From NCBI GenBank assembly GCA_014239735.1, contig JAAZYI010000024.1:58670-122669 (forward strand): a stretch of DNA of 64,000 bases. Reading direction: 5' to 3'. The notes under the pieces are model-generated. The model searched no databases. It was given only the letters and a program-made list of their open reading frames with translations, and was not told the DNA's origin. Shown here one piece after another: positions 6,791 through 59,680 of the stretch; positions within the stretch are counted from its first letter, which is position 1; every line of letters begins with the position of its first letter. Position numbers and translations under genes: made by a program. This stretch comes from Dehalococcoidia bacterium (lineage in GTDB: Bacteria > Chloroflexota > Dehalococcoidia > Lucifugimonadales > Lucifugimonadaceae).

Positions 6791-7138
6791 GGGGACGCGT
6801 GGCTTTGACAGGTAAATAATAGAATAGTTTGCGAAACGAGATTCCAAATTCTCGCTAAACTTTGGAAAAAAATAAACGGCGAAAAAGAATACGCTTTAGC
6901 AGCAGTTTAATCTAGCTTGCTACATCTTAATGAGTTTTTTCTCGGAAAACTTATAAAGATGACAAATTTCCGAGATGCACTATCAAATTGCTGAGTTTGA
7001 TAGTTAAGGCTTCTCAGCAGAATGCTTAGCTTAGATTTGTCGCTTTGCGGCTAAGTATTTATTAAAGTGACTATTTTCGTAGAGAATTAATCTGGTGTTT
7101 ATTTGGACGGGGAGTTCGACTCTCCCCCGTCTCCACCA
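6791..7138 (+). ncRNA. ssrA: tmRNA (transfer-messenger RNA)
   Basis: 5' end 'GGGGACGCGTGGCTTTGACAGG'. 3' end is a tRNA-Ala-like T-arm and acceptor, 'GGACGGGGAGTTCGACTCTCCCCGTCTCCACCA'. Internal tag frame GGC GAA AAA GAA TAC GCT TTA GCA GCA GTT TAA (about 6878-6910). Confidence 0.9.
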
Positions 7139-25817: not shown

Positions 25818-25991
25818 ATGGATGACAGGTCATACAGAGAAGGGCACCCCCCCTACTGCACATGTGTAGAATGCATAGAAAAAAATAATAAAAATCAAAA
25901 AAAAATGATTCAATTCAGTATTAGGCGCCCCATTGTTTTAACCCTTATATTTTTAGTTATGATTTCTTTAATCTTGATAATTTTTATATAA
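25818..25991 (+). CDS. candidate small tail-anchored membrane protein (57 aa), absent from the ORF track
   Basis: ATG preceded by 'AGGA'. N-terminal 'HPPYCTCVEC' Cys motif, a Lys-rich linker, then the hydrophobic C-terminus 'IVLTLIFLVMISLILIIFI'. Fills one of the few long intergenic gaps. Confidence 0.3.
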   Translation: MDDRSYREGHPPYCTCVECIEKNNKNQKKMIQFSIRRPIVLTLIFLVMISLILIIFI

Positions 25992-26943
25992 ATTTATTTT
26001 CTGAAAGACTAGCCCATAATTCTGGAGGTATAGTTTCATTTGCTATATCTATATTATCTTTTACTTCATTTATTGAGCTCATGCCTGGAACAACAGAAAA
26101 AACTTGAGAGTTGTTCAAAACAAAATTTAAAGCAGCAGATTTTAATGAAATGTTAAATTTGTTTGTAGTTTTTTCGATATTTTTTGCCTTATTGATTAAA
26201 TGAATAGGAGCAATTTCATAGTTATATGAAACTGGAGAATTAAGATCTCTTGCTAAAATCCCGCTATTATAAGGTCCTCCTATAATCACCCGAACACCTT
26301 TCTGGGCACACATTTTCATGAATTTAGTTGACTTAGTATTTTCTAAAAGAGTGTATCTTCCTGCTAAAAGTATTTTATCCAAGTCTATATTCTCCATAAA
26401 ACGAATAGGCATTTCGCATTCATTCATTCCGCAGCCAATGTTTTTAATGATACCTTCTTCTTTCATCTTTAACATTTCTGGGAATGCAAATCGAACTGCT
26501 TCTCTTTCTAGGCCCCCTTGATCAGGATCATGGAGCAAAAGTGTATCTAAATAATCAGTTTTTAGTCTTAGCAAAGACTCTTCTGTAGACCTTCTAATTC
26601 CGTCTTTTGAGTAGTCAAATATGGGCTCTCCGTAACCCTTATCTATTTCCATTTCATTTATTTTAGAACTATTTTTATTTCTTGAATTTCTGATTAATCT
26701 TCCACATTTAGAAGTTAAATTTATATTCTCTCTCTTTATTCCTTTTAAAGCTCTTCCATACCATAGTTCGCTTCTTCCGAATCCATACAAAGGGGCAGTA
26801 TCAAATATTTTTATTCCTGATTCGTATGCATAATTTATTATTTCAATTGTTTTTTCTTGATTTGCACCACCAAAAATGCCATCAGCTAGAACATTCCCAA
26901 AAGTTGCTCCTCCCAGACCTAATTTACTTAAATTATTATTCAT
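25984..26943 (-). CDS. aldo/keto reductase
   Basis: 'LGLGGATFG', 'FDTAPLYG.G.SE', 'YLD.LLLHDP'. Confidence 0.85.
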   Translation of the reverse strand: MNNNLSKLGLGGATFGNVLADGIFGGANQEKTIEIINYAYESGIKIFDTAPLYGFGRSELWYGRALKGIKRENINLTSKCGRLIRNSRNKNSSKINEMEIDKGYGEPIFDYSKDGIRRSTEESLLRLKTDYLDTLLLHDPDQGGLEREAVRFAFPEMLKMKEEGIIKNIGCGMNECEMPIRFMENIDLDKILLAGRYTLLENTKSTKFMKMCAQKGVRVIIGGPYNSGILARDLNSPVSYNYEIAPIHLINKAKNIEKTTNKFNISLKSAALNFVLNNSQVFSVVPGMSSINEVKDNIDIANETIPPELWASLSENKFI

Positions 26944-27997
26944 CTAATTTTAATATTACTTCTTCAGCGCATTCAGTTGTTGTAGCATTCCCGCCAAGGT
27001 CTGCAGTAATGCTATTGCCAGTCTTTAAAACAATTTTTACTGCCTCTCTAATCGAATTTGCGGCATTATTTTCTCCTAAATAAGACAGCATCATTGCCCC
27101 TGTTAATATCTGTGCCATCGGATTTGCAATATCTTGCCCTTCTATATCAGGAGCACTTCCATGAGTAGGCTCAAACATAGAGGGGTTATCTTTATTTTCT
27201 GATATATTTCCGCTTGATGCTAAACCAAGCCCTCCAGTTATCATGGCAGCAATATCTGTGAGAATATCACCAAATAAATTACTAGCAACAACTACATCGA
27301 ATTCAGAAGGTTTTCTTATGAAATCCATACAAGCAGCATCGATCAATAATGAATTAGTTTTAACATCTGGGTAATCTTTTGATACCTCTTTAAAAACCTT
27401 ATCCCACAAGACCATAGAATATCCTTGAGCGTTAGATTTGGTGATTGATGTTAACTTTTTATTTCTGTCCATTGACAGATCAAAGGCGTACCTTATAACC
27501 CTTTCTGTTCCTTTTCTTGTAAAAACAGATGATTGAATCGCAATTTCATCATCAAAATTTTCGTATTGAAAGCCTCCAACATTAGCATACTCTCCTTCTG
27601 TATTTTCTCTAACAACAACTAGGTCTATTTCTCCTGCATTAATACCTTTTAATGGAGACTCAACGCCTTCAAACAAAGCAGATGGTCTTAGGCATACAAA
27701 TTGATCAAATCTTCTCCTTATAGGTAAAAGTAACCCATTTAAAGTTATGTGATCTTGAATTTTTGGGTCACCAACTGCTCCTAAAAAAATTGCATCAAAG
27801 TTACTTAGAATTTCTAAGCCATCTTCAGGCATCATTTTTTTGTTTTTAAAATAAAAATCTGAACCCCAATCAAAAGAATCATAGTTGAGCTTAAAGTTAT
27901 TTATAGTTGCGACGCTATCTAGTACTCTGCAAGCTTCTCTGACCACTTCTTTTCCTATTCCGTCGCCTGGAATTACTGCTATTTTATATTCATTCAT
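26936..27997 (-). CDS. tartrate/D-malate dehydrogenase-type member of the isocitrate/isopropylmalate dehydrogenase family
   Basis: 'YKIAVIPGDGIGKEV', 'VVVRENTEGEY', 'NLFGDILTD', 'GSAPDI'. Confidence 0.8.
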   Translation of the reverse strand: MNEYKIAVIPGDGIGKEVVREACRVLDSVATINNFKLNYDSFDWGSDFYFKNKKMMPEDGLEILSNFDAIFLGAVGDPKIQDHITLNGLLLPIRRRFDQFVCLRPSALFEGVESPLKGINAGEIDLVVVRENTEGEYANVGGFQYENFDDEIAIQSSVFTRKGTERVIRYAFDLSMDRNKKLTSITKSNAQGYSMVLWDKVFKEVSKDYPDVKTNSLLIDAACMDFIRKPSEFDVVVASNLFGDILTDIAAMITGGLGLASSGNISENKDNPSMFEPTHGSAPDIEGQDIANPMAQILTGAMMLSYLGENNAANSIREAVKIVLKTGNSITADLGGNATTTECAEEVILKLDE

Positions 27998-27998
27998 T

Positions 27999-28886
27999 TT
28001 AAACCTCTTTGTCTTTTGATAATTTATTTATATAGATAGCAACACTAGCTATATCAGGCTCATCAATATCTAATTTATCCGTTTCCTCGAATAAATTTAA
28101 TGATAAGCTAGTTAATGGCAGATCCAAGTTCATTTGGTTACTCATTTCAGATATAATTTTTAAGTCTTTTACTATGTTTCTTATTGGGGCTGAAGAGTTT
28201 TCATAGTCCTTTTTCATATATATTGGCATATTTCTTTCAACCATTCTGCTGCCCCCAAAGCTTTTTGAAAGAATTTTTATTACTGAATTTAAGTCTATTC
28301 CGTATTTGTCTGCAAGAATCGCTGCTTCCATTGCAGCAACAGTATTAACTGAAGTCAGAAGCTGATTGACTATCTTCATGGATGTGCCAGTTCCTGGTCC
28401 TCCCATATGAACAACAGTTGTGCCCATTTTATTGAAAATTGGTTTAGCTTTTTCAAACGCTATACTGTCCCCACCACACATTATCGTTAAGGTCCCTTCA
28501 TTTGCACCTACTGGCCCCCCACTAATAGGAGCATCAATAAAATATACATTTTTATCTAAAGATTTTTCCCATATCAACTTTGAAGTTTCAACATCTACAG
28601 TGCTATGATCAACTATTATCGTGCCAGGCTTTGCTTCACTTAGAATTCCATTTTTTCCTAAAAAAACTTCAATCGAAGTTTCAACATTAGGTAGGCACGC
28701 AAGTATAAGCTCAGAATCATTAGTCAGTGACTTAATGCTTTTATGAGAAAACGCACCTTTTTCAACAAATGGCACCATTTTAGATTTTGATCTTGTAAAT
28801 ACGTTTAGATAAATTCCTTTTTCTACAAGATTGTGTGCCATTCCGCTACCCATGTTCCCTAGACCTATAAATCCAACTTTACTCAT
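27999..28886 (-). CDS. NAD(P)-dependent 3-hydroxyisobutyrate / tartronate-semialdehyde reductase family dehydrogenase
   Basis: 'VGFIGLGNMGSGMAHNL', 'DAPISGG', 'KIVNQ' region. Confidence 0.85.
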   Translation of the reverse strand: MSKVGFIGLGNMGSGMAHNLVEKGIYLNVFTRSKSKMVPFVEKGAFSHKSIKSLTNDSELILACLPNVETSIEVFLGKNGILSEAKPGTIIVDHSTVDVETSKLIWEKSLDKNVYFIDAPISGGPVGANEGTLTIMCGGDSIAFEKAKPIFNKMGTTVVHMGGPGTGTSMKIVNQLLTSVNTVAAMEAAILADKYGIDLNSVIKILSKSFGGSRMVERNMPIYMKKDYENSSAPIRNIVKDLKIISEMSNQMNLDLPLTSLSLNLFEETDKLDIDEPDIASVAIYINKLSKDKEV

Positions 28887-28954: not shown

Positions 28955-29740
28955 ATGAAAAAATTTTCTATAGAAATATTACCTAAGCAAAAATCAAAAA
29001 TTGTTGAGCTAAATCCTCAATTTTTTGAGGATGTTTATATAACACATATCCCAGGCTCCTCTTTGGAAGATTTAATAGATACTGCCAAGGAAGTAATTAT
29101 TCACGGCTTTAACCCAGTGCCTCATATACCTGCAAGATCAATTACTGATGAATCTTTATTGAATAAAACTTTAAAAAATTTAAAAGAAATAGGGGTCAAG
29201 GATTTGTTGACGATAGGGGGAAGTGTAAAGAATATAGTTGGTGAATTCGACTCAACAATAGATATGTTTAAAACTGGAGTATTAAATAACATTGTTTTTA
29301 GAAGTGTAAGAATCGCTGGCCACCCAGAGGGAAATCCTGATGATAAGAATTCAAAGGAATCTCTAAAAAATAAACTAATTTGGCTGAAAAAAAACAAATA
29401 TTCAACATCGATAGTTACTCAATTTTGCCTATCACCAGAAATAACAAATACCTGGATAAACGAAACCAAAGATTTGATACAAGAATTTGGAAGAGATGAT
29501 ACTAAAATTATTATTGGGGTGGCAGGACCTTCAAAAATTACTACTCTTATTAAATATGCTAAGGTGTGTGGTGTAAGTTCATCTGCAAATTTTCTAATCA
29601 AGCAGGGCTTGGACATTACAAAGTTGATAAAGCATTCCCCTACTGAATTGATAAAAAAATTAGATGGTTTTGACTCTCTACATTTCTTCCCTTTTGGAGG
29701 GATAAAAGAATTAGATAATTGGTTATTAAATCAAGTATAA
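28955..29740 (+). CDS. metF: methylenetetrahydrofolate reductase family protein
   Basis: 'FSIEILP' N-terminus (compare SFEFFPP), 'IAGHPEG', 'FCLS' region. First gene of the corrinoid/C1 cluster. Confidence 0.78.
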   Translation: MKKFSIEILPKQKSKIVELNPQFFEDVYITHIPGSSLEDLIDTAKEVIIHGFNPVPHIPARSITDESLLNKTLKNLKEIGVKDLLTIGGSVKNIVGEFDSTIDMFKTGVLNNIVFRSVRIAGHPEGNPDDKNSKESLKNKLIWLKKNKYSTSIVTQFCLSPEITNTWINETKDLIQEFGRDDTKIIIGVAGPSKITTLIKYAKVCGVSSSANFLIKQGLDITKLIKHSPTELIKKLDGFDSLHFFPFGGIKELDNWLLNQV

Positions 29741-29753
29741 TCAAAGGAAAAAA

Positions 29754-30761
29754 ATGAAAAGATTTACAGTAATTGGTGAAAATATACATGCGACTAGAGT
29801 GCTGAGACTTAATGGAAAAAGAGTTGGGGATAATGATGAAGGAGTTCAATCAGTCAAGTACTATTCTGAAGGGGAGACAAAATTTATGACAATTCCTGAT
29901 GAAATGAAAAAAACTCAACCATATCAGCAAGGCCAAGCTAAACACTTTATGATTGCTGTATGGAAAGGCTTGTTTGGTGACTCTAGAGATCAAGAAGAGT
30001 CTGCTGATTACATTAAAAATGAAATAAAACGTCAAGAAGTGGCAGGCGCAAACTTCTTAGATCTAAATGTTGACGAGATGTCTCATAAGCTTGATATTCA
30101 GATTAAAGCAATGAAATGGTTGGTCTCAATTGTAGAGAAATTTTCTTCAGCTCCACCAAGTATAGATTCCTCTAATTCAGAAATAATTCAGGCAGGCTTA
30201 GCTCAATATACAGGAAAACAAGGTAGTCCAATGATAAATTCTATTGCACTAGAAAGAGTGGAAACTTTTGATTTAGTACAAGAATTTAATGCTAGTGCAA
30301 TCTTGACTGGTGCTAGCGAAGATGGGATGCCTAGTAATTCTGATGAAAGAGTCACCAATATAAATAAGATTGTGGAAATCTCAAAAAAACATAATATTAA
30401 TTTTTCAGATATACACCTCGATCCGCTTGTATTCCCTATTTCTGTAGCTCCAGAATATGGAGTTCATTTTTTTGATGCCGTAGAAAAGATCAGGGAATTA
30501 TTTGGTGATGAAATAAATATAAGCGGAGGGCTTAGTAATGTTTCTTTTGGTCTTCCTAGAAGAAAATTAGTAAATGATGTTTTTATATATATTTGCCTTC
30601 AGAGAGGCCTAGATAGTGGAATAATAGATCCCTTACAGTTAAAAATTGATGATATTTTGGCGCTCGATGAAAATTCTGAAGACTTCAAAATAGCAGAAAA
30701 TATGCTTATGGGAAGAGATGATTTTTGTATGAATTATATAAAATATTGCAGAGAAGGATAG
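29754..30761 (+). CDS. pterin-binding methyltransferase (methyl-THF:corrinoid methyltransferase; MetH pterin-domain / MeTr-like)
   Basis: 'IGENIH', 'LDLNVDE', 'SIDSSN', 'INSIA', 'GGLSNVSFGLPRR', matching the dihydropteroate-synthase-like pterin-binding fold of MetH/AcsE. Confidence 0.82.
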   Translation: MKRFTVIGENIHATRVLRLNGKRVGDNDEGVQSVKYYSEGETKFMTIPDEMKKTQPYQQGQAKHFMIAVWKGLFGDSRDQEESADYIKNEIKRQEVAGANFLDLNVDEMSHKLDIQIKAMKWLVSIVEKFSSAPPSIDSSNSEIIQAGLAQYTGKQGSPMINSIALERVETFDLVQEFNASAILTGASEDGMPSNSDERVTNINKIVEISKKHNINFSDIHLDPLVFPISVAPEYGVHFFDAVEKIRELFGDEINISGGLSNVSFGLPRRKLVNDVFIYICLQRGLDSGIIDPLQLKIDDILALDENSEDFKIAENMLMGRDDFCMNYIKYCREG

Positions 30762-30762
30762 A

Positions 30763-31104
30763 TTGATTAAAATCAGAATAATGTATTGGAAAGAGATACC
30801 TGTGCAAATTGAATTTTCTACTTCTTCAATAAAAAAGTCTGTTAAATTAGATGAAAGGTTTCAATTTGCAGTTGACTCTTTGTCAATGAAGGATGGTAGT
30901 TATGGATCTGATGATTATTTAGATGGGTGGCAATGGAAAGATAAAGAAGAGATTGAGGAAGAATTTACGGAAAAATTACTCAATGAATATTTAGATAGAT
31001 ATAAATATCCTCAAGATTTAATAAAAAAAACTACTGAACTGTTAAAATCTGGTAAAAGAGACGAGTCTCCAGGCGCAATAGATGACTGGATTATAGGTAA
31101 TTAA
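30763..31104 (+). CDS. small conserved protein of the type found beside split methionine-synthase genes ('virulence factor'-annotated family); TTG start
   Basis: N-terminus 'IRIMYWKEIPVQI' resembles the 'YWRDIPAQV' start I recall for that family. Tightly coupled: 1 nt after the upstream stop and 1 nt before the next start. Confidence 0.5.
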   Translation: MIKIRIMYWKEIPVQIEFSTSSIKKSVKLDERFQFAVDSLSMKDGSYGSDDYLDGWQWKDKEEIEEEFTEKLLNEYLDRYKYPQDLIKKTTELLKSGKRDESPGAIDDWIIGN

Positions 31105-31105
31105 C

Positions 31106-31987
31106 TTGAGTTTTATAGACAGAATAAATTCTCCAGGTACTTTGCTCTCAGATGGAGCAACAGGTACTTTTTTACAAACAAGAGGGCTTGAGCCAGGTGG
31201 TTGTCCAGAATTAATGAATGTAGAAAAAGAAGATGCCGTTATTGAAATGGCTCAGGGTTATTTCGATTCTGGATCAGATTTCGTATTAACAAATACTTTT
31301 GGGGGAAGTCCGTTCATGTTAAAGAAATACGGTTACGAGAAAAAAACCCATGAATTTAATAAAGCTGGAGCTGAATTAGCAAAGTCAGTGTGCCCTAAAG
31401 ACAAATTTGTATTCGGCTCTATAGGGCCTACTGGAGAATTTATAAAACCTTTAGGTAATGTATCTGAAGATGAAATGTCAGATGGTTTTAAAAGACAGAT
31501 TAATGGTCTTTTAGAAGGAGGAGTTGATGGAATAATTTTTGAAACACAAATGGCGATAGAAGAGTTAGTCTTAGGTATAAAAACAACTAAATCGATAACA
31601 AATTTGCCGATTATAGGCAGTATGGTTTTTGACAAAGGCCCAAGAGGTTTTTTTACAATGATGGGGGTAACTCCAGAGCAGGCATCAGCTGAAATTTATA
31701 ATGCTGGAGCTGATATAGTGGCTACAAATTGTGGTAATGGATCAGAAATTATGTCAGAACTTTCTAAGGAGTTAATTAGTCATAGCAAGCTGCCTGTTAT
31801 GATTCAGTCAAATGCTGGCATTCCTAAAATAGTTAAAGGAAAGGTAATTTATGATGAAAAACCTGATTTTATGACTAAAAATTATAAAAAAATTATAGAT
31901 TACGGGGCAAGCATTATTGGTGGATGTTGTGGAACTACATTTGAACATATAAAAAGATTTAGAAAATTTTTAAATGAAAATGATTGA
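31106..31987 (+). CDS. homocysteine S-methyltransferase domain protein (MetH Hcy-binding module or MmuM/BHMT-like); TTG start
   Basis: 'LLSDGATGT', 'TNTFG', Zn ligands 'ATNCG' and 'GGCCGTT'. Confidence 0.85.
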   Translation: MSFIDRINSPGTLLSDGATGTFLQTRGLEPGGCPELMNVEKEDAVIEMAQGYFDSGSDFVLTNTFGGSPFMLKKYGYEKKTHEFNKAGAELAKSVCPKDKFVFGSIGPTGEFIKPLGNVSEDEMSDGFKRQINGLLEGGVDGIIFETQMAIEELVLGIKTTKSITNLPIIGSMVFDKGPRGFFTMMGVTPEQASAEIYNAGADIVATNCGNGSEIMSELSKELISHSKLPVMIQSNAGIPKIVKGKVIYDEKPDFMTKNYKKIIDYGASIIGGCCGTTFEHIKRFRKFLNEND

Positions 31988-32009: not shown

Positions 32010-32672
32010 ATGAATATTAGACCTATAGAAGTAATTGAAAAGTATGGAAGGTGCATAGAGTTAATTTCTATGGATCCTTTTTTTAATGAAATAACTATCG
32101 GCTTATTTTTTAAAGAACCTAACATAACAGTATTTTCTTATAGTAAGCTTGATGGCGTTTCAGGAAGGTTAAATCAAATTAGAGATCGGATTGTTGATGT
32201 ATCTGGGGCTCTTCCTAATGAAGCCAACCCACATCAGGCAACATTTAAATGTGGTATGGAAGGAGGCTGCTGCTCTGCCCCACTTAGGTTTGCTTTAAAG
32301 GAAGCGGTAACTAAAGATAGAGAATTAGATCTTTCTCAAGGCATTATCTGTAAGGACTTAAGATCAAACATGATGATAAAAGTTAATTATGAAGAAAATT
32401 CAAATGGAAAAATCTATACTGTTTCAGGTGATGATAATGCCGAAAAACCAATTATAAGATATAGGGCAATTACTAATGGGCTTATTAAGTACGGAGGGTT
32501 TGAAAGAATTGATAATTTTTCATTCAGATTAAGTTGCAATGAAAGAAATGATAAAATTGTAAACCTTCTCCTTCCTTTAGCAAGAAATATCAGTGCGACA
32601 GAAGAATCATTAGCATCAGAAGATGCTGCCGGGCAAATGACAACACAATCTCTAGGTTTTTCAGCAAATTAA
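32010..32672 (+). CDS. hypothetical protein, 220 aa, no recognised family
   Basis: Uninterrupted ORF inside the co-directional corrinoid cluster. Stop lies 1 nt before the next start. Contains 'CGMEGGCCSAP' (Cys81, 87, 88). No TM segments. Confidence 0.6.
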   Translation: MNIRPIEVIEKYGRCIELISMDPFFNEITIGLFFKEPNITVFSYSKLDGVSGRLNQIRDRIVDVSGALPNEANPHQATFKCGMEGGCCSAPLRFALKEAVTKDRELDLSQGIICKDLRSNMMIKVNYEENSNGKIYTVSGDDNAEKPIIRYRAITNGLIKYGGFERIDNFSFRLSCNERNDKIVNLLLPLARNISATEESLASEDAAGQMTTQSLGFSAN

Positions 32673-32673
32673 A

Positions 32674-33717
32674 ATGATAGATATTAACTTGAAATTAACA
32701 AAAAAACAGCGAGTTCTTAATGCGCTAGCTGGCGAAGACGTAGATAAGCCACCGGTATCAAATCCTACAAATGTTGCGACAGTAGAACTAATGGATTATG
32801 TTGACGCTCCATTTCCAGATGCGTGCAGAAATCCTGAACTTAATGCTAAATTAGCCTTGACAGGTCACACTGAACTTGGATTTGATTCTATTGCTCCTTA
32901 TTTTTCTATTATTCAAGAATCTTCGGCTCTAGGTTGTGAAATGCAATGGGAACAGAAAGATAATTGGCCAACTGTAAGAATGGGAAACCCAATTTGGAAA
33001 TCTATTTCTGATATTAAAATTCCATCTGGATTTCTTGAGCACCAAGATAATGTTGCAATTACTAGATCTATTAATATTTTAAAAGAAGAAGTAAAAGGCG
33101 AGGTTGCAATATTAGGCAAAACCATGGGGCCATGGACTTTAGCATATCATGTTTTTGGGGTTGAGCCGTTTCTTTTATTGTCAATTGATGACCCAGAAGA
33201 AACAAAAAAAATACTAAGAAAATTAAAAGAAATTACTATTCTTTTTGGTCAAGCTCAAATCGATTCAGGAGCAGATGTTTTAGTAATCCCAGATCATGCA
33301 ACTGGAGATCTTGTGAGTGGTAAATATTATGACGATTTTTTATTAGAAATTCATCAGGAATTAGTTGAGGATTTAAAAGTTCCACTGATCCTGCATATTT
33401 GCGGTAGAACTGTAGATAGAATGCCTTCTATAGCAAAAACTGGTATGGCAGCTTTTCATTTTGACTCAAAGAATCTGCCATCTGAAGCTATGGAAGCTGT
33501 TGGAGAAGGTATTAGGCTTGTTGGCAACATCAATAATCCTGAAACTCTTTACTCTAAAACCCCTGAAGATGTCAGACAGGAAGTTTATAGGGCACTTGAT
33601 TCAGGTGTCCAGCTTATTGCTCCTGAGTGTGCTATTCCTCTTAAAACAAAAATAGAAAATCTGCTTGCAATACCAGATGCTGTAAATCAGTGGGTTTCTA
33701 ATAAATTTCAATCTTAG
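32674..33717 (+). CDS. uroporphyrinogen-decarboxylase-family methyltransferase (MtaA/MtbA/MtsA-like methylcobamide:thiol methyltransferase)
   Basis: N-terminus 'KKQRVLNALAGEDVDKPPV' typical of MtaA-like proteins. Zn motif 'LILHICGRT' (H-x-C) plus the distal 'APECAIP' Cys. 347 aa. Confidence 0.8.
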   Translation: MIDINLKLTKKQRVLNALAGEDVDKPPVSNPTNVATVELMDYVDAPFPDACRNPELNAKLALTGHTELGFDSIAPYFSIIQESSALGCEMQWEQKDNWPTVRMGNPIWKSISDIKIPSGFLEHQDNVAITRSINILKEEVKGEVAILGKTMGPWTLAYHVFGVEPFLLLSIDDPEETKKILRKLKEITILFGQAQIDSGADVLVIPDHATGDLVSGKYYDDFLLEIHQELVEDLKVPLILHICGRTVDRMPSIAKTGMAAFHFDSKNLPSEAMEAVGEGIRLVGNINNPETLYSKTPEDVRQEVYRALDSGVQLIAPECAIPLKTKIENLLAIPDAVNQWVSNKFQS

Positions 33718-33759: not shown

Positions 33760-34497
33760 ATGATAAAACACGAAGGACTTAAAGAAGAATTTAATTATGT
33801 GACTAAACCCGATGAGCAAGAACATATTGAGGGGTTATTTGCGAGCGGCGATATGCTGATGCAAGAAATTGCTTACAACCTTATCACAGGTCAGAATGAT
33901 CAAGTTGGAATTTTAGTAAAAAAAGCACTAGATGAAGATTACGCAGCAAATATTGTCCTTGATGATGGCTTGATAGCAGGAATGGCTATTGTAGGTGTTA
34001 AATTTAGAGATAATATTATTTTTGTTCCTGAAGTATTAATTTCTGCTAGAGCTATGAAGGCAGGAATGGAGCATATAGAACCTATTTTATCTGCCTCAGG
34101 GATTGAGCCTGTTGGCACTGTGATTATGGGAACCGTCAAGGGCGACCTTCATGATATAGGAAAAAATCTTTGCATAATGATGCTAAGGGGCGGCGGTTTT
34201 TCAGTTCATGATTTAGGAGTAGATACTAAACCTGATGACTTTATCGATGCTGTAATGGAACATGGTGCCGCAATTGTTGGGATGTCAGCTCTTTTGACTA
34301 CCACAATGCCAAATATGGGAACAACAATTGAAGCTTTTGAGGATGCAGGTATGCGAGAAGAAGTAAAAATAATGGTTGGAGGAGCTCCTGTAACACAAGA
34401 ATTTGCTGATGAAATGGGTGCAGATGCATATGGCGCAAATGCTATAGATTGTGTTCAAAAAGCTAAAGATTTTTCAACTACTAAAAATGGCACCTAA
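33760..34497 (+). CDS. corrinoid (cobalamin-binding) protein, cap plus Rossmann B12-binding domains
   Basis: 'GDLHDIGKN' (D-x-H-x-x-G), 'MSALLTTT' (S-x-L), 'MVGGAPV' (G-G). N-terminal helical cap. Confidence 0.9.
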   Translation: MIKHEGLKEEFNYVTKPDEQEHIEGLFASGDMLMQEIAYNLITGQNDQVGILVKKALDEDYAANIVLDDGLIAGMAIVGVKFRDNIIFVPEVLISARAMKAGMEHIEPILSASGIEPVGTVIMGTVKGDLHDIGKNLCIMMLRGGGFSVHDLGVDTKPDDFIDAVMEHGAAIVGMSALLTTTMPNMGTTIEAFEDAGMREEVKIMVGGAPVTQEFADEMGADAYGANAIDCVQKAKDFSTTKNGT

Positions 34498-34756
34498 AAA
34501 AAAATTAACGGATAAAAAACGTGCAAAAGAAAGCCTAGAGACTCTATTTGATATTTTTAAGGAAATTTCAAATCATGCAGACGAATTAACAAAAAAAAGA
34601 TGCCCTTATAAAAATGCTAAATCAAGATGTACCGCTAAGTTTGAGTGTAAGAACCAACACTATATAAAAAAATTTGGAGAAGGGCCTGTGTGTACTGGAT
34701 CAGATCTTCTTGATTATAGACCTGCGTGGAGAACAGATAAAAAAATTAGCTCCTGA
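34487..34756 (+). CDS. small basic Cys-rich protein (about 89 aa from the ATG at 34487; the ORF track starts it at an upstream GTG, 34451)
   Basis: The ATG overlaps the last codons of the corrinoid-protein gene. Four Cys in 'RCPYKNAKSRCTAKFECKN...GPVCTG'. Confidence 0.5.
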   Translation: MAPKKKLTDKKRAKESLETLFDIFKEISNHADELTKKRCPYKNAKSRCTAKFECKNQHYIKKFGEGPVCTGSDLLDYRPAWRTDKKISS

Positions 34757-34770
34757 TAGAATATATCATT

Positions 34771-36393
34771 ATGGGTGATATTAAATCTGATAGTAATAGA
34801 ACGCCTTCTTTAATAGGCAAAACACTTTTTGACTTTGCAGACACATTAAGTATTAGAGTTCCTACAAGTTGCGGAAGGACTGGAGAGTGTCATGAGTGCA
34901 TTATTCAAGTTACTGAAGGATTAGAAAACTTGTCAGAAAAAAAAGAGCTTGAGAGTTTTCTGGGTCCGGAATTTAGATTAGCCTGCCAAGCCATTATAAA
35001 TAATGATAGTAATAATGTTAGTTTTAATGTTTTAAGAAGGCAGCCTAAAATACTAGACAAAGGAAATAAAACTGACTTTTCATTAAATCCATCTGTTATT
35101 TTAAATGAAAGTAAAGTTATTTATAAATATGATAATCGTGTTTTAAATGAGAAAATTACTCCAATTTATGGCGTTGCTGTTGATTTAGGAACCACTACAG
35201 TAGTGTGCAGTATTATAGATTTAATTAGTGGTAAAAAAATTGGAACTTCTTCATTTGAAAACCCTCAAAGATTTGGAGGTAGCGACACATTAAATAGAAT
35301 TTCATATGAAACAACTAAATTCCCCGGAGAGTTAAAATCAGTGATTATTTCTGGAATAAATTTTGAAATTGGTGAATTGTGCAAAAAAAATAAAATTAGA
35401 AGGTCTCATATTTATGAAATGGTAATAGTCGGTAATACTACTATGCGAGATATTTTTTTTGGGATAGATGTTTCTTCAGTTGGCCAAAAACCTTATAAAT
35501 CAATAACTCAACTCGAACTTGAAAATGGAAAAAGAGATTCAACAGCACTTTTATTTAATTCTTCAGAACTTGGGATAAGGATTAACAAAAAAGGCTTAAT
35601 TGTTAGCCCACCATTAATTTCATCTCATATAGGTTCTGATATTACTGCTGATTTAGTTTCTATATCTGCTGATACTCATGAAGAAAATTTTATTTTATTA
35701 GACGTTGGGACAAATACTGAAATTGTTATAGGAAATAAAGATAATTTAGTAGCCGCTTCTTGCCCTGCAGGACCAGCATTTGAAGGTGGGGAGGTAAGGT
35801 ATGCTATGCCAGGCTATGATGGTGCTATTGAGAAATTTGAAATAAATAATGGAATAGAAACCTTTTCTACAATTAATAATAATCCTCCGCAAGGTATCTG
35901 TGGGTCTGGATTAATAGATTTGCTTGCTGCCCTCAAATCAAATTCAATAATTAATGAATTAGGCGTTTTATCAAATGGAAGCGACCATTATGAAATTAAT
36001 AATAGTAACGGAATAAATATTTCTAGATCTGATATGAGTGCATTAGCTCAAGCAAAAGCAGCAAATTATTGTGGCCAGTCAATAGCTTTAAAGAATTCAT
36101 CAATAGATATAAATAATTTTGATAAACTTTATTTAAGTGGTGGATTTGCAAATTATATTAATGTAGATAATGCAATTAAAATTGGATTTATAATAGATAC
36201 TCCAAATGCTGAAATAATAAAAATTGGCAACTCAGCACTTCAAGGGGCAATTATGTTATTACTTGATGTTAATTTAAGAAGTAAATTTGATAATCTTGTT
36301 AAATCTATTAAGCACATAGAATTGGAAACTGATGAGAGTTTTTTTGAACATTTTGTTGAAGGTTGTCAATTTAAAGAATTATCTATTATGTAA
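34771..36393 (+). CDS. corrinoid reductive activase (RACo/RamA-like: N-terminal [2Fe-2S] ferredoxin plus ASKHA ATPase, DUF4445-type)
   Basis: 'SCGRTGECHEC...LACQA' plant-type 2Fe-2S pattern. ASKHA phosphate motifs 'AVDLGTTTV' and 'LLDVGTNTE'. Also 'ICGSGLIDL'. Confidence 0.85.
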   Translation: MGDIKSDSNRTPSLIGKTLFDFADTLSIRVPTSCGRTGECHECIIQVTEGLENLSEKKELESFLGPEFRLACQAIINNDSNNVSFNVLRRQPKILDKGNKTDFSLNPSVILNESKVIYKYDNRVLNEKITPIYGVAVDLGTTTVVCSIIDLISGKKIGTSSFENPQRFGGSDTLNRISYETTKFPGELKSVIISGINFEIGELCKKNKIRRSHIYEMVIVGNTTMRDIFFGIDVSSVGQKPYKSITQLELENGKRDSTALLFNSSELGIRINKKGLIVSPPLISSHIGSDITADLVSISADTHEENFILLDVGTNTEIVIGNKDNLVAASCPAGPAFEGGEVRYAMPGYDGAIEKFEINNGIETFSTINNNPPQGICGSGLIDLLAALKSNSIINELGVLSNGSDHYEINNSNGINISRSDMSALAQAKAANYCGQSIALKNSSIDINNFDKLYLSGGFANYINVDNAIKIGFIIDTPNAEIIKIGNSALQGAIMLLLDVNLRSKFDNLVKSIKHIELETDESFFEHFVEGCQFKELSIM

Positions 36394-36401
36394 GGAAAAA
36401 T

Positions 36402-37376
36402 ATGAAGATTGTAATTTCAGATTATGCTTGGCCTAACATAGATATTGAAAAAGAATATTTTATGAGTAAGTCAGTAGATATAAATATTGCCACTGGAAAA
36501 GATGACTTACTAAATAAAATCGAAGATGCAGATGGACTACTTTTTTGTTTTGAGGATATTAATGAAGATGTTTTAAGATCCGGCAAAAAACTTAAAGCTG
36601 CGCAAAGATATGGTATAGGAGTAGACAATATTAACATTAAGGTAGCTACAGAGTTGGGTATAGTAGTTTCAAATATTCCAGATTACTGTATCAATGAAGT
36701 TTCAGATCATGCGCTATCTATGATACTCGCTATAAACAGAATGATTATACCTGATAGCAAAATGGTAAAACTGGGCAAATGGAATGATGTTAAAAAAGGC
36801 AGTAGAGTGTACAGACTTAAAGATGCAACATTAGGAATTATAGGTTTTGGTCGCATTGGTAGACGCCTTGCATTTAAGGCAAAAGCATTAGGATTAAATG
36901 TTATTGCATATGACCCATATATTAATGAAAAGATTTATGATGACGTAAACATTTTATCTTTTGATGAAGTCATTTCAAATAGTGACATATTATCGCTTCA
37001 CGTACCTCTTACGGAGGAAACTAATCATTTGATTAGTAATAAAGAGCTTGAAAAAATGAAAAAAGATGCAATTTTAATTAATGTTTCGAGAGGTGGCTTG
37101 ATTGATGAAGCAGCCCTTTCAAAATATTTAGATAATGGAAAAATTAGAGGCGTGGGTTTAGATGTCATGGAAGATGATAATCCATCTCCTTCTAATCCTT
37201 TATTTAAATATGAAAATGTAATTGTTACACCTCACACTGCATTTTTCTCTCAAGAATCTAGCCAGGAGCTACAAATCAGATCTTGTAAGCAGTTATATGA
37301 TGTATTAAATGGGAAAATACCAGAGTTTTTAATTAATCCTGATGTACTAGATCATTCAGACGTTAATCTTATTTGA
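36402..37376 (+). CDS. D-isomer-specific 2-hydroxyacid dehydrogenase
   Basis: 'LGIIGFGRIGRRLA' NAD site, 'INVSRGGLIDE', 'GLDV', 'TPHTAF'. Confidence 0.85.
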   Translation: MKIVISDYAWPNIDIEKEYFMSKSVDINIATGKDDLLNKIEDADGLLFCFEDINEDVLRSGKKLKAAQRYGIGVDNINIKVATELGIVVSNIPDYCINEVSDHALSMILAINRMIIPDSKMVKLGKWNDVKKGSRVYRLKDATLGIIGFGRIGRRLAFKAKALGLNVIAYDPYINEKIYDDVNILSFDEVISNSDILSLHVPLTEETNHLISNKELEKMKKDAILINVSRGGLIDEAALSKYLDNGKIRGVGLDVMEDDNPSPSNPLFKYENVIVTPHTAFFSQESSQELQIRSCKQLYDVLNGKIPEFLINPDVLDHSDVNLI

Positions 37377-56483: not shown

Positions 56484-56526
56484 TAAATTGGTTTAATATT
56501 TAATTTTTATATTAACAATAAAAATA

Positions 56527-56659
56527 TCTCTAAGGATAAGAGAATCGGTTTAAATCCGAACGGTTTGCGCCACTGTTACGCGTGATGCATTGGTCACTGG
56601 ATAATATCTGGGAAGGCTAATTTAAAATGTACGCATAAGTCAGGAGACCTCCTTAAAGA
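56527..56659 (+). promoter_or_regulatory. cobalamin (B12) riboswitch aptamer
   Basis: Conserved 'GAATCGGTTTAAATCCGAACGG', 'GCCACTG' (56569-56575), 'CTGGGAAGGC', and B12-box 'AAGTCAGGAGACCTCC' (56637-56652). P1 pairs TCTCTAAGGA (56527-56536) with TCCTTAAAGA (56650-56659) at 9 of 10 positions. Lies upstream of a btuCFD-like operon. Confidence 0.85.
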
Positions 56660-56707
56660 ATAGTTAAAGGTTTTCGCAATAAAAAATCTGTATTTCAGAG
56701 ATTTATT

Positions 56708-57787
56708 GTGTTCGAATTTTATATGTTGAACACTAATTTAAAATCTATAAGACACTTTTCTGTGTATCATAAATTTATTTTTATTGTTCCTGTAATTTCA
56801 ATTTTAGGATTAATTTTAATAGTTATATCTTTATCAAATGGGGCTGTATCAACAAATTTCTCAGATTCTTTTAAATATTTATTTTCATATTTTATAGATT
56901 CTTCAACTGTTGACCCTATAAAAGATATGGTAATTTCAAACATAAGAATGCCAAGAATTATATTGTCACTGCTTGTGGGTTCAGCATTAGCTGTCTCTGG
57001 GGCTTCCCTTCAAGGTGTTTTTAAAAATCCAATGGCAGATCCAGGAATAATTGGAGTTTCTTCTGGGGCAGCTGTAGGAGCTGTAGTAATAATATCTTTA
57101 GGGATAGCAGGATCATCAATATTTATACTGCCAATCTTTTCATTCATTGGAGGGTTGTTCGCTGCACTTATAGTTTTTTTATTATCAAGAATTTCTACAA
57201 ATACTTCTGGAACATCTTTTATTCTATCTGGTCTTGCTGTATCAGCATTTTTAAATTCAATAATTTCTTTAGTTTTGGTTTCTTCAAAAAAATTTGGTGA
57301 ACTTAATGCAATTTTAAATTGGCTTGCTGGTGGATTCCAAGATACAAGATGGGAACATGTCTATATGGCCGCCCCTATTATAATTGTGCTTCTGCCGCTA
57401 TTCTTTATTTTTTCAAATAGAATAAATATCTTATCTTTATCTGATGATTCAGCAAAAACATTGGGTTTAAATGTTGAATTAAATAGATTTATATTTTTAG
57501 TTTTAGCAACACTAATGACTTCTGTTTCTGTCGCCGTATGTGGAATACTAGCTTTTGTGGGAATAATGATTCCGCATATAACTAGATTAATTGTAGGCCC
57601 AGATAATAGGCTTGTAATTCCAATTTCAGCTTTAATTGGGGCTGTTTTTTTATTATCCGGCGATCTTATAGCAAGGACTATCTTAGTGCCTAGCGAAATC
57701 AGGTTAGGAATAATTACAAGTTTCATTGGAGCTCCTTACTTTATTTTTCTATTAATCAAACAAAGAAACAACTTTATTGAAAGGTAA
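56708..57787 (+). CDS. btuC: FecCD-family ABC permease (BtuC-like); GTG start or ATG at 56723
   Basis: 'RMPRIILSLLVGSALAVSGASLQGVFKNPMADPGIIGVSSGA', 'LSLSDDSAKTLG', 'GIITSFIGAPYFIFLL'. Confidence 0.88.
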   Translation: MFEFYMLNTNLKSIRHFSVYHKFIFIVPVISILGLILIVISLSNGAVSTNFSDSFKYLFSYFIDSSTVDPIKDMVISNIRMPRIILSLLVGSALAVSGASLQGVFKNPMADPGIIGVSSGAAVGAVVIISLGIAGSSIFILPIFSFIGGLFAALIVFLLSRISTNTSGTSFILSGLAVSAFLNSIISLVLVSSKKFGELNAILNWLAGGFQDTRWEHVYMAAPIIIVLLPLFFIFSNRINILSLSDDSAKTLGLNVELNRFIFLVLATLMTSVSVAVCGILAFVGIMIPHITRLIVGPDNRLVIPISALIGAVFLLSGDLIARTILVPSEIRLGIITSFIGAPYFIFLLIKQRNNFIER

Positions 57788-57790
57788 AAA

Positions 57791-58930
57791 ATGCATAAAT
57801 TACTTCTAACTTTTCTACTTGTTTTCTCATTGGTTGCTTGTGACACCATTGATGAAATTCAGCAAGTAGAAAGTGAAAGTAACATTAATGATTCATTAAT
57901 AGCAAATACTATCGAAGATAAGGATCATGAACACGACGAAGATAAGGATCATGAACTTAGTTTTTCTCATTATCTAGAAGAATTTGGAACTCAAGGATTA
58001 TTAAGCATAGAAAAACTTGATGGCATTGATTTGAGTTGGCCTAGAGAAGTTGAAGCTATGAATGGAAAAATTACAATTGAAGAAAAACCTAATAGAATTC
58101 TAACAATATCTGTTGGTCACGATGAAATGCTTTTTGGTTTTGCTGACATTGATACTATTGTTGCGGTATCGTCTTTTTCTCAAAATGAAACTGGCAATAT
58201 TTATGACCTAACTAAGGATCTGCCTACAATTTCTTCTGAAATAGAAACAATAATTGCTCAAGAGCCTGACTTAGTTTTTGCTGACCCTTACGCTAATCCA
58301 AGTTTGATAGAATCGTTAATAGATGTAGGTATTACTGTTGTTCAGACTCAATTAAATAATGATTATATTGGAAGAATAAATGACATACTGTTTACTTCGT
58401 ATGTTATAGGGCAAACAGAGAATGTCTCTAATCTTATAAGCGTTATAGAGGAAAAAATTTCTATAATTGATGAATTTAAGGGTCAGTTTGATAGAAAGCC
58501 AAGCGTCCTATCAGTTACTTATTATGATGCTTACTGGGCTGCTGGGGCAGGCTCTGCTGAAGGAAGTATAATTGAGCTTGCTGGTGGATTAAATATTGCT
58601 TCAGAGAATGGTGTTGAATCAAATAACATGATTACCAAAGAAGCTTTAATTGATATGAATCCTGAGTATATTGTTATTCCTCAATCAATTGCATGGGGTG
58701 GTCAAGATTTCTATGATTCATTGTTTGCTGATGAGTCGTTTCAATCTATAGACGCAATTATAAATAAAAATGTTTACTTGGTTGATACAAGTTACTTCAC
58801 AACGCTTTCCCATTGGAATATTATTGGAGCAGAAAAATTAATGGAAATAATCTGGGAGGATGAGTGGAATAAGGTAGTTGGTGATTTGCCAGAATTTTAT
58901 TCTTGTATGAACTGCGATATCTACAATTAA
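57791..58930 (+). CDS. periplasmic-binding-protein family (cluster A-2, BtuF/siderophore-type) substrate-binding lipoprotein
   Basis: Lipobox 'SLVAC', 'RILTISVGHDEMLF', 'PDLVFA'. Lies between the permease and ATPase genes. Confidence 0.8.
   Translation: MHKLLLTFLLVFSLVACDTIDEIQQVESESNINDSLIANTIEDKDHEHDEDKDHELSFSHYLEEFGTQGLLSIEKLDGIDLSWPREVEAMNGKITIEEKPNRILTISVGHDEMLFGFADIDTIVAVSSFSQNETGNIYDLTKDLPTISSEIETIIAQEPDLVFADPYANPSLIESLIDVGITVVQTQLNNDYIGRINDILFTSYVIGQTENVSNLISVIEEKISIIDEFKGQFDRKPSVLSVTYYDAYWAAGAGSAEGSIIELAGGLNIASENGVESNNMITKEALIDMNPEYIVIPQSIAWGGQDFYDSLFADESFQSIDAIINKNVYLVDTSYFTTLSHWNIIGAEKLMEIIWEDEWNKVVGDLPEFYSCMNCDIYN
57914..57956 (+). repeat. 19-nt perfect direct repeat (GAAGATAAGGATCATGAAC x2, 24-nt period) encoding EDKDHEHD-EDKDHE
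   Basis: Read directly: copies at 57914-57932 and 57938-57956, inside the linker after the lipoprotein signal. Confidence 0.9.
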
Positions 58931-58936
58931 TTAAAT

Positions 58937-59680
58937 ATGAGCATAAAAATAAAAAAGTTAAGTTATTCCCCTAATAACATAAATGTATTAGATAACATTT
59001 CATTAGATATTAATGGAGGAACAACTACCTTTTTAGGCCAGAATGGATCTGGTAAAACAACTTTAATGAAATTGATTTCAAAATTGATTGATCCAACTAA
59101 TGGGGAAGTTTTAATTAATGATATAAATGTTAAAGATATAAAAAAATATGATTTATCAAAATTAATAACTTATATCTCGCAAGACAGAGAAAATATTCAA
59201 GGCTTTACTGTATTTGAATATGCAGAAATGGGCAGATTTCCATACCAAAACTTTTATGGAAAATATGACAATAAAAGCCTAGAAGCAATAGAAAATTCTT
59301 TAAGAATAGTTAACTTATACAAAAGAAGAGATGATCTTGTTAATAATCTATCTGGGGGCGAAATGCAGATTCTTAGGATTGCAAGAGCTTTAACTCAAGA
59401 TACAGAAATAATATTATTTGATGAGCCTACATCCAATTTAGACATTAAAAACACGAAGAGAGTAAAAGATTTGATTTTAAAACTAAAAGATTTGGGTAAA
59501 AAGATACTGATTTCTACTCATGATATAAATTTTGCTGAATCAATTTCAGATTTTATTTTTATGATTAAAGAGGGAAAATTGATTTATTCAGATATAAAAG
59601 AGAAAGCGCTAACTAAAGAAAATATTATAGATTGTTATGACTTAGATATTTATGAGGGCACTGAAATTAAACTTTTTTAA
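58937..59680 (+). CDS. ABC transporter ATP-binding protein (BtuD/FepC-like)
   Basis: Walker A 'GQNGSGKTT', signature 'LSGGEMQ', Walker B 'ILFDEPTSNLD'. Confidence 0.88.
   Translation: MSIKIKKLSYSPNNINVLDNISLDINGGTTTFLGQNGSGKTTLMKLISKLIDPTNGEVLINDINVKDIKKYDLSKLITYISQDRENIQGFTVFEYAEMGRFPYQNFYGKYDNKSLEAIENSLRIVNLYKRRDDLVNNLSGGEMQILRIARALTQDTEIILFDEPTSNLDIKNTKRVKDLILKLKDLGKKILISTHDINFAESISDFIFMIKEGKLIYSDIKEKALTKENIIDCYDLDIYEGTEIKLF

Follow-up and report, generated by a model that had tools for sequence, protein, structure and literature searches.

In Ruegeria pomeroyi, genetics has shown that the stand-alone corrinoid protein MtgC and the bidirectional pterin-binding MtgD serve both the demethylation of glycine betaine by MtgB and the synthesis of methionine by MtgE, and the system also has a MetF paralog and a RamA-type ATP-dependent activase (PMC12478193). 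This MtgBCDE system is known in Ruegeria pomeroyi and Phaeobacter inhibens (PMC12478193; PMC5764234 as cited there). Here we analyse an operon that resembles it, found in a stretch of 64,000 nucleotides (nt) from a Dehalococcoidia bacterium (assembly GCA_014239735.1, contig JAAZYI010000024.1, positions 58,670-122,669 of the forward strand), which as a whole we call the window. Within this operon, a gene at positions 32010-32672 of the window encodes a protein of 220 amino acids (aa) that belongs to a new, undescribed family. We read this protein, with moderate confidence, as a metal-binding accessory subunit (a specificity factor or adaptor) of the MtaA-type enzyme encoded directly after it, and it is probably a missing component of a corrinoid methyltransferase system.

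The window operon has in common with MtgBCDE a corrinoid protein, pterin-binding and homocysteine-binding methyltransferases, a MetF paralog and a reductive activase, and in both cases these parts would serve the breakdown of methyl groups as well as the synthesis of methionine in marine aerobes, for the window as predicted from its genes. It differs in that MtgB (PF06253) is absent and the MtaA-like enzyme and the 220-aa protein stand in that place, in that DUF1638 is absent, and in having two extra constant proteins, one with four cysteines and one of the PF13769 family; the report on the Ruegeria system mentions neither the 220-aa family, nor MtaA, nor Chloroflexota (PMC12478193). The type 1 mlp clusters also combine bacterial MtaA-like methyltransferases with a corrinoid protein and a reductive activase (Ram/RACE), but they have several Mlp paralogs, no folate methyltransferase and no protein like the 220-aa one, and occur in obligate anaerobes only; their proposed substrates are methyl-sulfur or methyl-selenium compounds (PMC10418091). 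Together with the mec (dichloromethane) cassette and the cdm chloromethane system, which are likewise bacterial systems built on MtaA or UroD-type enzymes, the mlp clusters were considered as a home of the 220-aa family and set aside, since none contains such a protein; MecG of the mec cassette is DUF1638. The family is like DUF1638 (MecG; SPO2162) in being an accessory protein that recurs in corrinoid methyltransferase clusters with its mechanism unexplained, but a Pfam scan of 59 family members gave no sequence match between the two, and DUF1638 travels with the corrinoid protein and the activase, whereas the 220-aa family travels with the MtaA-like enzyme. With respect to the characterised MtaA, MtbA, MtsA and MtpA, the neighbour in the window is a true member of their group, while the 220-aa protein itself has no similarity to them.

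A conserved gene of a new protein family

32010..32672, + strand: gene of the 220-aa protein, ATG start; undescribed family with members of about 210 aa

The open reading frame (ORF) begins after a 22-nt spacer that follows the stop of a homocysteine S-methyltransferase gene at 31987, its own stop ends at 32672, and the ATG of the MtaA-like gene lies at 32674, so that a single nucleotide separates the two (TAAAATG). The protein has cysteines at positions 15, 81, 87, 88, 114 and 176, with the cluster 'CGMEGGCCSAP' starting at residue 81. The original prediction had given these coordinates, length, spacers and cluster correctly, and had also rightly called both flanking genes zinc-type methyltransferases, the upstream one matching PF02574 and the downstream one PF01208 and NF004889 and carrying the zinc ligands. 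Compared with an ortholog of 91% identity (locus L095), the gene has a ratio of nonsynonymous to synonymous substitution rates (dN/dS) of 0.068; for its neighbours this ratio is 0.033 (MtaA-like gene), 0.056 (pterin-binding gene), 0.076 (homocysteine module) and 0.145 (PF13769 gene). The gene is therefore genuine and under strong purifying selection, an artefactual ORF being excluded by its conservation together with dN/dS.

Scans with Pfam, NCBIfam and PADLOC returned only noise for the 220-aa protein, for 16 close and 59 broad relatives and for three distant members, and the same was true of phmmer and profile searches of all PDB sequences with the 220-aa protein. The known families of methyl-donor:corrinoid methyltransferases (MtaB, MttB/MtgB PF06253, MtmB, MtbB, UroD-type O-demethylases, pterin-binding enzymes) gave no Pfam or NCBIfam match to it. 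The initial statement that the protein could be assigned to no family thus holds for Pfam, NCBIfam, PADLOC and PDB sequences, and neither remote-homology searches nor comparison of the predicted fold gave a confident match to an unrelated housekeeping family. The word 'orphan', which was used for it, is right for annotation and wrong for evolution, as a sizeable uncharacterised family exists, with about 376 relatives found by profile search.

A first protein search recovered 27 relatives at 55-99% identity, all of them unnamed and from metagenome-assembled genomes (MAGs) of marine Chloroflexota/Dehalococcoidia; contigs of 1.2 Mb and a GC content of about 32% among these relatives point to a streamlined lineage as host. 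A profile search of 1.84 billion cluster representatives matched 161 clusters, and a second one gave 376 proteins of about 210 aa, none named or with a Pfam domain. In a scan with one genome per species, 431 genomes encode a relative, and the best 80 of these 431 belong to Gemmatimonadota, Latescibacterota, Poribacteria and Opitutales, with many sponge-associated MAGs; the gene is also present in an Alphaproteobacteria MAG. Marine metagenomes (GC 39-66%) commonly contain an intermediate subfamily, whose members share 33-40% identity with the window protein. The family spans at least six phyla, and searches of the literature on SAR202, Poribacteria, MtaA and sponge symbionts gave no account of it.

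Genetic linkage to the MtaA-type methyltransferase

We found 134 loci where the neighbourhood could be evaluated, 76 from species genomes and 58 from marine metagenomes, and in 127 of them an MtaA-type gene lies downstream on the same strand. In the species genomes it is directly downstream in 61/76 loci, separated by one gene in 9/76 and missing in 6/76 (all Poribacteria paralogs); in the metagenomes it is adjacent in 48/58, follows an insert in 9/58 and is missing in one. Across the window clade the spacer between the two genes is 0-13 nt, and the linkage is kept in the Alphaproteobacteria MAG. A corrinoid protein is encoded in 40/76 and the activase RACo in 38/76 species-genome loci, while the homocysteine module lies directly upstream of the family gene in 49/54 metagenome loci. 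In many Poribacteria loci the family protein and the MtaA-like enzyme are encoded as a pair, with no corrinoid protein or RACo nearby. The constant unit is the family protein plus the MtaA-like enzyme, and since the pair persists where no corrinoid protein is near, the family protein is tied to the MtaA-like enzyme. The functional tie to this gene that the original prediction had proposed is thus borne out, with at most one gene before the MtaA-like gene in 70/76 and 57/58 loci, and homologs in several phyla keep it as a near-constant neighbour.

The two proteins also diverge together. Over 3570 locus pairs, the pairwise identities of the family protein and of the MtaA-like protein are correlated with r = 0.94, with faster divergence of the family protein (mean identity 60% vs 84% for the MtaA-like protein); between phyla the family protein is about 27-30% identical and the MtaA-like one 64-68%. 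The MtaA-like and corrinoid proteins are both unusually conserved, at about 64-68% from Chloroflexota to Gemmatimonadota and Poribacteria (loci L007-L011 and L013 onward), against only 25-32% for the neighbouring family protein; this points to an operon that has spread laterally, to catalytic parts under very strong constraint, or to both.

The loci with the pair only are more in line with a protein that works as subunit or adaptor with the MtaA-like enzyme than with one that serves the corrinoid protein. This bears on another idea, which we hold to be very improbable: that the protein loads the corrinoid protein or acts as its cobalamin chaperone, with a role like that of CblC/CblD or DUF1638. 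A conserved cysteine could ligate cobalt, and the organism seems able to import B12 (a cobalamin riboswitch and an ABC (ATP-binding cassette) transporter at 56516-59680), but the linkage is to the MtaA-like gene and not to the corrinoid protein, and 59 family members gave no match to DUF1638 (PF07796) or any other B12-related family at E up to 5.

Poribacteria carry extra family paralogs (L029, L036, L042, L047, L051, L052, L059), and also several paralogous pairs. The paralogs that lack an MtaA-like gene within 6 kb follow a conserved gene pair encoding a protein of about 510 aa that looks membrane-associated and one of about 311-328 aa that looks secreted, as judged from N-terminal sequences only; in others, a RuvC-like gene lies between the family gene and the MtaA-like gene. 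The inserts before the MtaA-like gene were considered as a further conserved component and rejected, as they turned out to be non-coding DNA of about 700 nt or else an unrelated ORF of 322 aa. The stretch at 7676-8383 of L101, like those in other loci with gaps of about 750 nt, has about 700 nt with no coding-strand ORF of at least 60 aa, and Rfam at gathering threshold found nothing in these stretches. Three apparent Rosetta-stone fusions were discarded: P0027, in which a thioredoxin N-terminus is joined to the C-terminal half of the family protein, comes from a single contig of 1.6 kb and looks like a chimeric assembly, P0064 looks like a read-through of the homocysteine module after a frameshift, and P0163 is an unrelated protein with Ig repeats.

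Internal duplication and a putative metal site

32037..32321, + strand: N-terminal repeat, residues 10-104; beta-beta-beta-alpha-beta-alpha; invariant D22, Y44, R53, C81
32250..32273, + strand: Cys81, with Cys87 and Cys88 from the 'GCC' insertion specific to the clade; candidate ligands for metal in repeat 1
32331..32600, + strand: C-terminal repeat, residues 108-197; invariant D116, Y136, R150, C176
32535..32549, + strand: Cys176 and Asn180; repeat-2 motif, in which the His usual in the family is Asn in the clade
32601..32669, + strand: C-terminal tail 'EESLASEDAAGQMTTQSLGFSAN'; near-invariant in the clade; candidate partner-docking segment

The 220-aa protein is an internal duplication. Profiles of its N-terminal and C-terminal halves align in hhalign with a probability of 96.3% (E 1.6e-9), superposing Y44 on Y136, R53 on R150 and C81 on C176, and over 59 sequences D22/D116, Y44/Y136, R53/R150, C81/C176 and G208 are invariant. 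Eight polar residues (E17, D22, Y44, R53, R93, D116, Y136, R150) are invariant. Homologous halves with this Asp/Tyr/Arg/Cys set, a conserved C-terminal tail and a gene directly upstream of an MtaA-type gene define membership of the family, and the window protein has all three. An AlphaFold2 model built from 16 sequences reached a predicted local distance difference test score (pLDDT) of 75, and a second one built from 59 sequences reached pLDDT 87.2 with a predicted template modelling score (pTM) of 0.82; the latter consists of two tandem beta-beta-beta-alpha-beta-alpha units, after which come a C-terminal helix and tail, both of low confidence.

With the better model, Foldseek found nothing in the PDB at E <= 0.001 (best E 0.75, TM-score < 0.25), and over both models against the PDB and the better model against BFVD the best E was 0.09 with TM-scores of at most 0.26; matches to PUR-alpha and to p34 of Arp2/3 were dismissed as noise. 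The order in which the secondary-structure elements follow one another brought up a circularly permuted glyoxalase/VOC-like (vicinal oxygen chelate) fold, which is not claimed, having no Foldseek support. When we speak of a new fold for the predicted structure, we mean only that Foldseek finds no relative of the model among solved structures.

The tail falls in confidence towards its end (in the final three blocks of 10 residues, pLDDT goes from 71 to 57 and 43) and is conserved all the same, with the pattern 'LPLARNISATEESLAAED.AGQMTTQSLGF' shared by the window and intermediate clades and a different, also conserved, 'RA.NVRA..RE.E....RGvLaAPSaQ' in the main family. On the basis of the model, we infer that it may be a segment that folds on a partner.

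The fold comparison matters for a separate proposal, that the protein is a pathway enzyme or carrier in its own right, for example for the thiol, sulfide or metalloid that the MtaA-like enzyme makes or uses, with the Cys/His site for binding or relay. The paired Cys/His and the many invariant polar residues would suit such a protein, operon linkage is equally compatible with consecutive steps of a pathway, and in their preprint Kountz and Balskus have argued for bacterial MtaA homologs acting in methyl-sulfur or methyl-selenide metabolism (PMC10418091). We regard this proposal as unlikely, given that the protein shows no similarity to rhodanese, TusA, DsrE, MerB, ArsD or any other thiol- or sulfur-handling fold (with the same best Foldseek E in the PDB), and that the 1-nt spacing in the window and the co-divergence of the two proteins are more typical of subunits.

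A census of 265 distinct full-length family members found the motif C-x3-H in both halves ('F.CG..H') in 232 of them, the two copies lying about 95 residues apart at equivalent positions of the internal repeat. The window clade (24 members) has instead C81, an inserted G-C87-C88, C176 and Asn in place of the second His, and G86, C87 and C88 are invariant within it. From these sequences, the set of ligands would change from Cys2His2 to Cys4 in the window clade with the number of ligands staying at four. In three members (P0031, P0032 and P0090) both cysteines are lost jointly, and this joint loss, along with the exchange of His for Cys at constant ligand number, is the pattern of a single tetrahedral metal site. 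The 220-aa protein is thus likely to have such a site, to which the Cys pair of the window clade probably contributes metal binding; Zn2+ is the simplest guess for the metal, with [2Fe-2S] as the alternative. The original prediction had noticed that 'CGMEGGCCSAP' superficially echoes the GGCC zinc motif of the neighbouring homocysteine module. Homology does not explain the likeness, the CC pair being a clade-specific insertion that replaces His, and the PF02574 profile matches neither the 220-aa protein nor its 59 relatives at E up to 5; the resemblance would be convergence at most. A weaker idea, that these cysteines bind a metal, does find support in the four ligands kept.

The alternative metal leads to a different role, that of a [2Fe-2S] redox protein, Rieske-like where the ligands are Cys2His2 and ferredoxin-like where they are Cys4, that would provide or gate electrons for activating the corrinoid by reduction, or would protect it in oxic cells. 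Cys2His2 versus Cys4 is the classic Rieske-versus-ferredoxin ligand pattern, and this is the exchange seen in the family; RACo moreover needs an electron donor, and the hosts are probably aerobes. We consider this role distinctly improbable. In loci that lack the corrinoid protein and RACo, the family protein remains beside the MtaA-like gene, RACo already contains a [2Fe-2S] domain and is adjoined by a separate small protein with four cysteines, and no Rieske or Fer2 profile matches the family, in which the spacing C-x3-H differs from C-x-H...C-x-x-H and from C-x4-C-x2-C...C.

A further reading makes the 220-aa protein itself a new substrate-side methyltransferase (MT1) outside the TIM-barrel class, using its metal site to bind or activate the methyl donor, with the MtaA-like enzyme as an ordinary methyl-Co-to-thiol methyltransferase (MT2). 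The operon otherwise has only acceptor-type or reversible methyltransferases and no MT1 of the MtgB, MttB, MtaB or O-demethylase type, the family has many invariant polar residues and several paralogous pairs in Poribacteria, and it diverges faster than the MtaA-like and corrinoid proteins, as is usual for substrate-specific parts. This is the likeliest of the alternatives and still unlikely. The family has only about 210 aa, whereas every corrinoid MT1 known to us is a TIM-barrel-type enzyme of at least 300 aa, and the model of the 220-aa protein shows the tandem repeat and no TIM barrel. Moreover, a four-ligand metal site would be coordinatively saturated, three members do without the cysteines, and MtaA-family enzymes alone can be the MT1 for thioethers: MtsA and MtpA are able to run the substrate-to-Co(I) half-reaction with them. 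MtpA is treated in a preprint (bioRxiv 10.1101/548461).

The operon, its setting and a proposed role for the pair

28955..29740, + strand: divergent MTHFR-like protein, 261 aa, first gene of the cluster (PF02219, E 1.6e-5, 24.9 bits vs cut-off 24)
29754..30761, + strand: pterin-binding methyltetrahydrofolate:corrinoid methyltransferase, analogous to MtgD/MeTr (PF00809, E 2e-19; NF005719, E 1e-58)
30763..31104, + strand: PF13769 ('Virulence_fact') protein, about 110 aa; constant neighbour of the homocysteine module in every arrangement seen
31106..31987, + strand: homocysteine S-methyltransferase module, analogous to MtgE (PF02574, E 1e-59; C209, 'GGCCG' at 272 with C274/C275)
32674..33717, + strand: MtaA-type (UroD-fold) zinc methyltransferase (PF01208, E 7e-67; NF004889, 263.8 vs cut-off 244)
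33760..34497, + strand: corrinoid (B12-binding) protein, resembling MtgC/MtbC (PF02607 and PF02310)
34487..34756, + strand: small protein of about 89 aa with four cysteines, always between the corrinoid protein and RACo; no Pfam match
34771..36393, + strand: RACo-type reductive activase with [2Fe-2S] and ASKHA ATPase domains (PF00111, PF17651, PF14574)
36402..37376, + strand: D-2-hydroxyacid dehydrogenase (phosphoglycerate dehydrogenase/glyoxylate reductase-like), which follows RACo in the Chloroflexota-type arrangement

The order of these genes, with that of the 220-aa protein between the homocysteine module and the MtaA-like gene, is fixed in the window clade and identical in the intermediate subfamily. 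Gemmatimonadota, Latescibacterota and others have the same genes re-ordered among unrelated flanking genes: a GntR regulator transcribed divergently is followed by the family protein, the MtaA-like enzyme, the corrinoid protein, the small protein, RACo, a fusion of MTHFR to DUF5981 (about 530 aa in the operons of other phyla), the pterin-binding enzyme, the homocysteine module and the PF13769 protein. Nine genes thus recur together across loci with unrelated flanks. The small protein of about 89 aa keeps the motif RCPYKN..CTA.F.C.NQ..C.G.D.L.YR.AW across phyla, Chloroflexota and Latescibacterota included; perhaps it is a metal or Fe-S protein of small size that serves the activase. The MtaA-like protein matches the structure of Methanosarcina MtaA (4AY7) with E 4e-51 and retains H241-x-C243 and C319; with these zinc ligands retained, it is a zinc methyltransferase of the thiol/thioether type and not a UroD enzyme of the O-demethylase type.

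Beyond the operon, the window contains the following features:

6791..7138, + strand: transfer-messenger RNA gene (RF00023, 151 bits)
25984..28886, - strand: divergent flank conserved in the clade, with an aldo-keto reductase, a tartrate dehydrogenase (TIGR02089, above cut-off) and a tartronate-semialdehyde-reductase-like protein
56516..56669, + strand: cobalamin riboswitch (RF00174, 49.6 bits), directly upstream of the next genes
56708..59680: genes of a BtuC-like permease, a BtuF-like binding protein and an ABC ATPase

Through the flanks at 25984-28886 and 36402-37376, the operon may be connected with the metabolism of glycerate, glyoxylate or serine. The riboswitch seems to control an import of B12 in this organism, and together with the BtuCDF-like transporter it fits a B12-dependent lifestyle. 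At the operon itself, in the window and in five related loci, Rfam found no riboswitch.

We propose that the 220-aa protein, as an accessory subunit, and the MtaA-like enzyme could form the substrate-side module of a self-contained, split operon for a corrinoid-dependent demethylase and methionine synthase. In the 220-aa protein, one Cys-containing knuckle from each half would form the four-ligand site (with Cys2His2 ligands in the majority of family members and Cys4 in the window clade, and Zn2+ as the most likely metal), and the flexible conserved tail would dock on the MtaA-like enzyme or on the corrinoid protein as its partner. Some small methylated compound would give up a methyl group, which would be passed to the Co(I) corrinoid protein, from where it could move to tetrahydrofolate through the pterin-binding methyltransferase and MTHFR, or to homocysteine through the homocysteine module, yielding methionine, while RACo would re-reduce cobalt that has become oxidised. 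By analogy with what MtsA and MtpA do, and because the His-Cys-Cys zinc site is intact, the donor would most plausibly be a methyl-thioether or sulfonium compound such as dimethylsulfoniopropionate, methylmercaptopropionate, dimethyl sulfide or methanethiol. The physical complex, the identity of the metal, the direction of methyl flow, the substrate and the contribution of the 220-aa protein are all parts of this scheme that we infer.

Several points weigh against an accessory subunit. To our knowledge, the characterised MtaA, MtbA, MtsA and MtpA need no such partner, and the characterised archaeal enzymes of this group act without one of the 220-aa kind. The interaction of the two proteins as subunits is read from gene linkage, no Rosetta-stone fusion of the family protein to the MtaA-like protein was found, and six Poribacteria paralogs have no MtaA-like gene within 6 kb. 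The closeness of C81, C87/88 and C176 in space is likewise deduced from the alignment of the repeats, the Cys pair is without counterpart in three members, and the site may be structural and dispensable. Finally, the eight invariant polar residues could mean an autonomous enzyme, or could be structural, as symmetric pairs. Taken as a whole, the interpretation first given for the 220-aa protein, that of a substrate-binding or activating subunit or an adaptor, is partly supported.

What is known here is the type of operon, one for corrinoid methyl transfer, and what is new is a component family with no detectable structural relative. Corrinoid methyltransferase systems use a small and well-known set of parts, and a constant extra family means that the parts list is incomplete. 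The host operon resembles MtgBCDE, which links osmolyte demethylation, methionine synthesis and B12 demand in the ocean, and it differs in the substrate-specific part. The role of the pair could therefore reveal a methylated compound that is used by streamlined marine Chloroflexota and sponge symbionts, and could show how MtaA-type enzymes are used outside methanogens. We advance only tentatively, as a possibility well short of our reading of the protein as an accessory subunit, that this metalloprotein with its putative new fold is the substrate-recognising or activating half of an unrecognised two-subunit methyl-donor:corrinoid methyltransferase, which would feed folate-linked one-carbon metabolism as well as the synthesis of methionine in uncultured bacteria that are abundant in the sea or live as sponge symbionts. 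If this is true, B12-dependent methyl transfer would have gained a component of a new class, one that offers a way to an unknown methylated substrate in the ocean.

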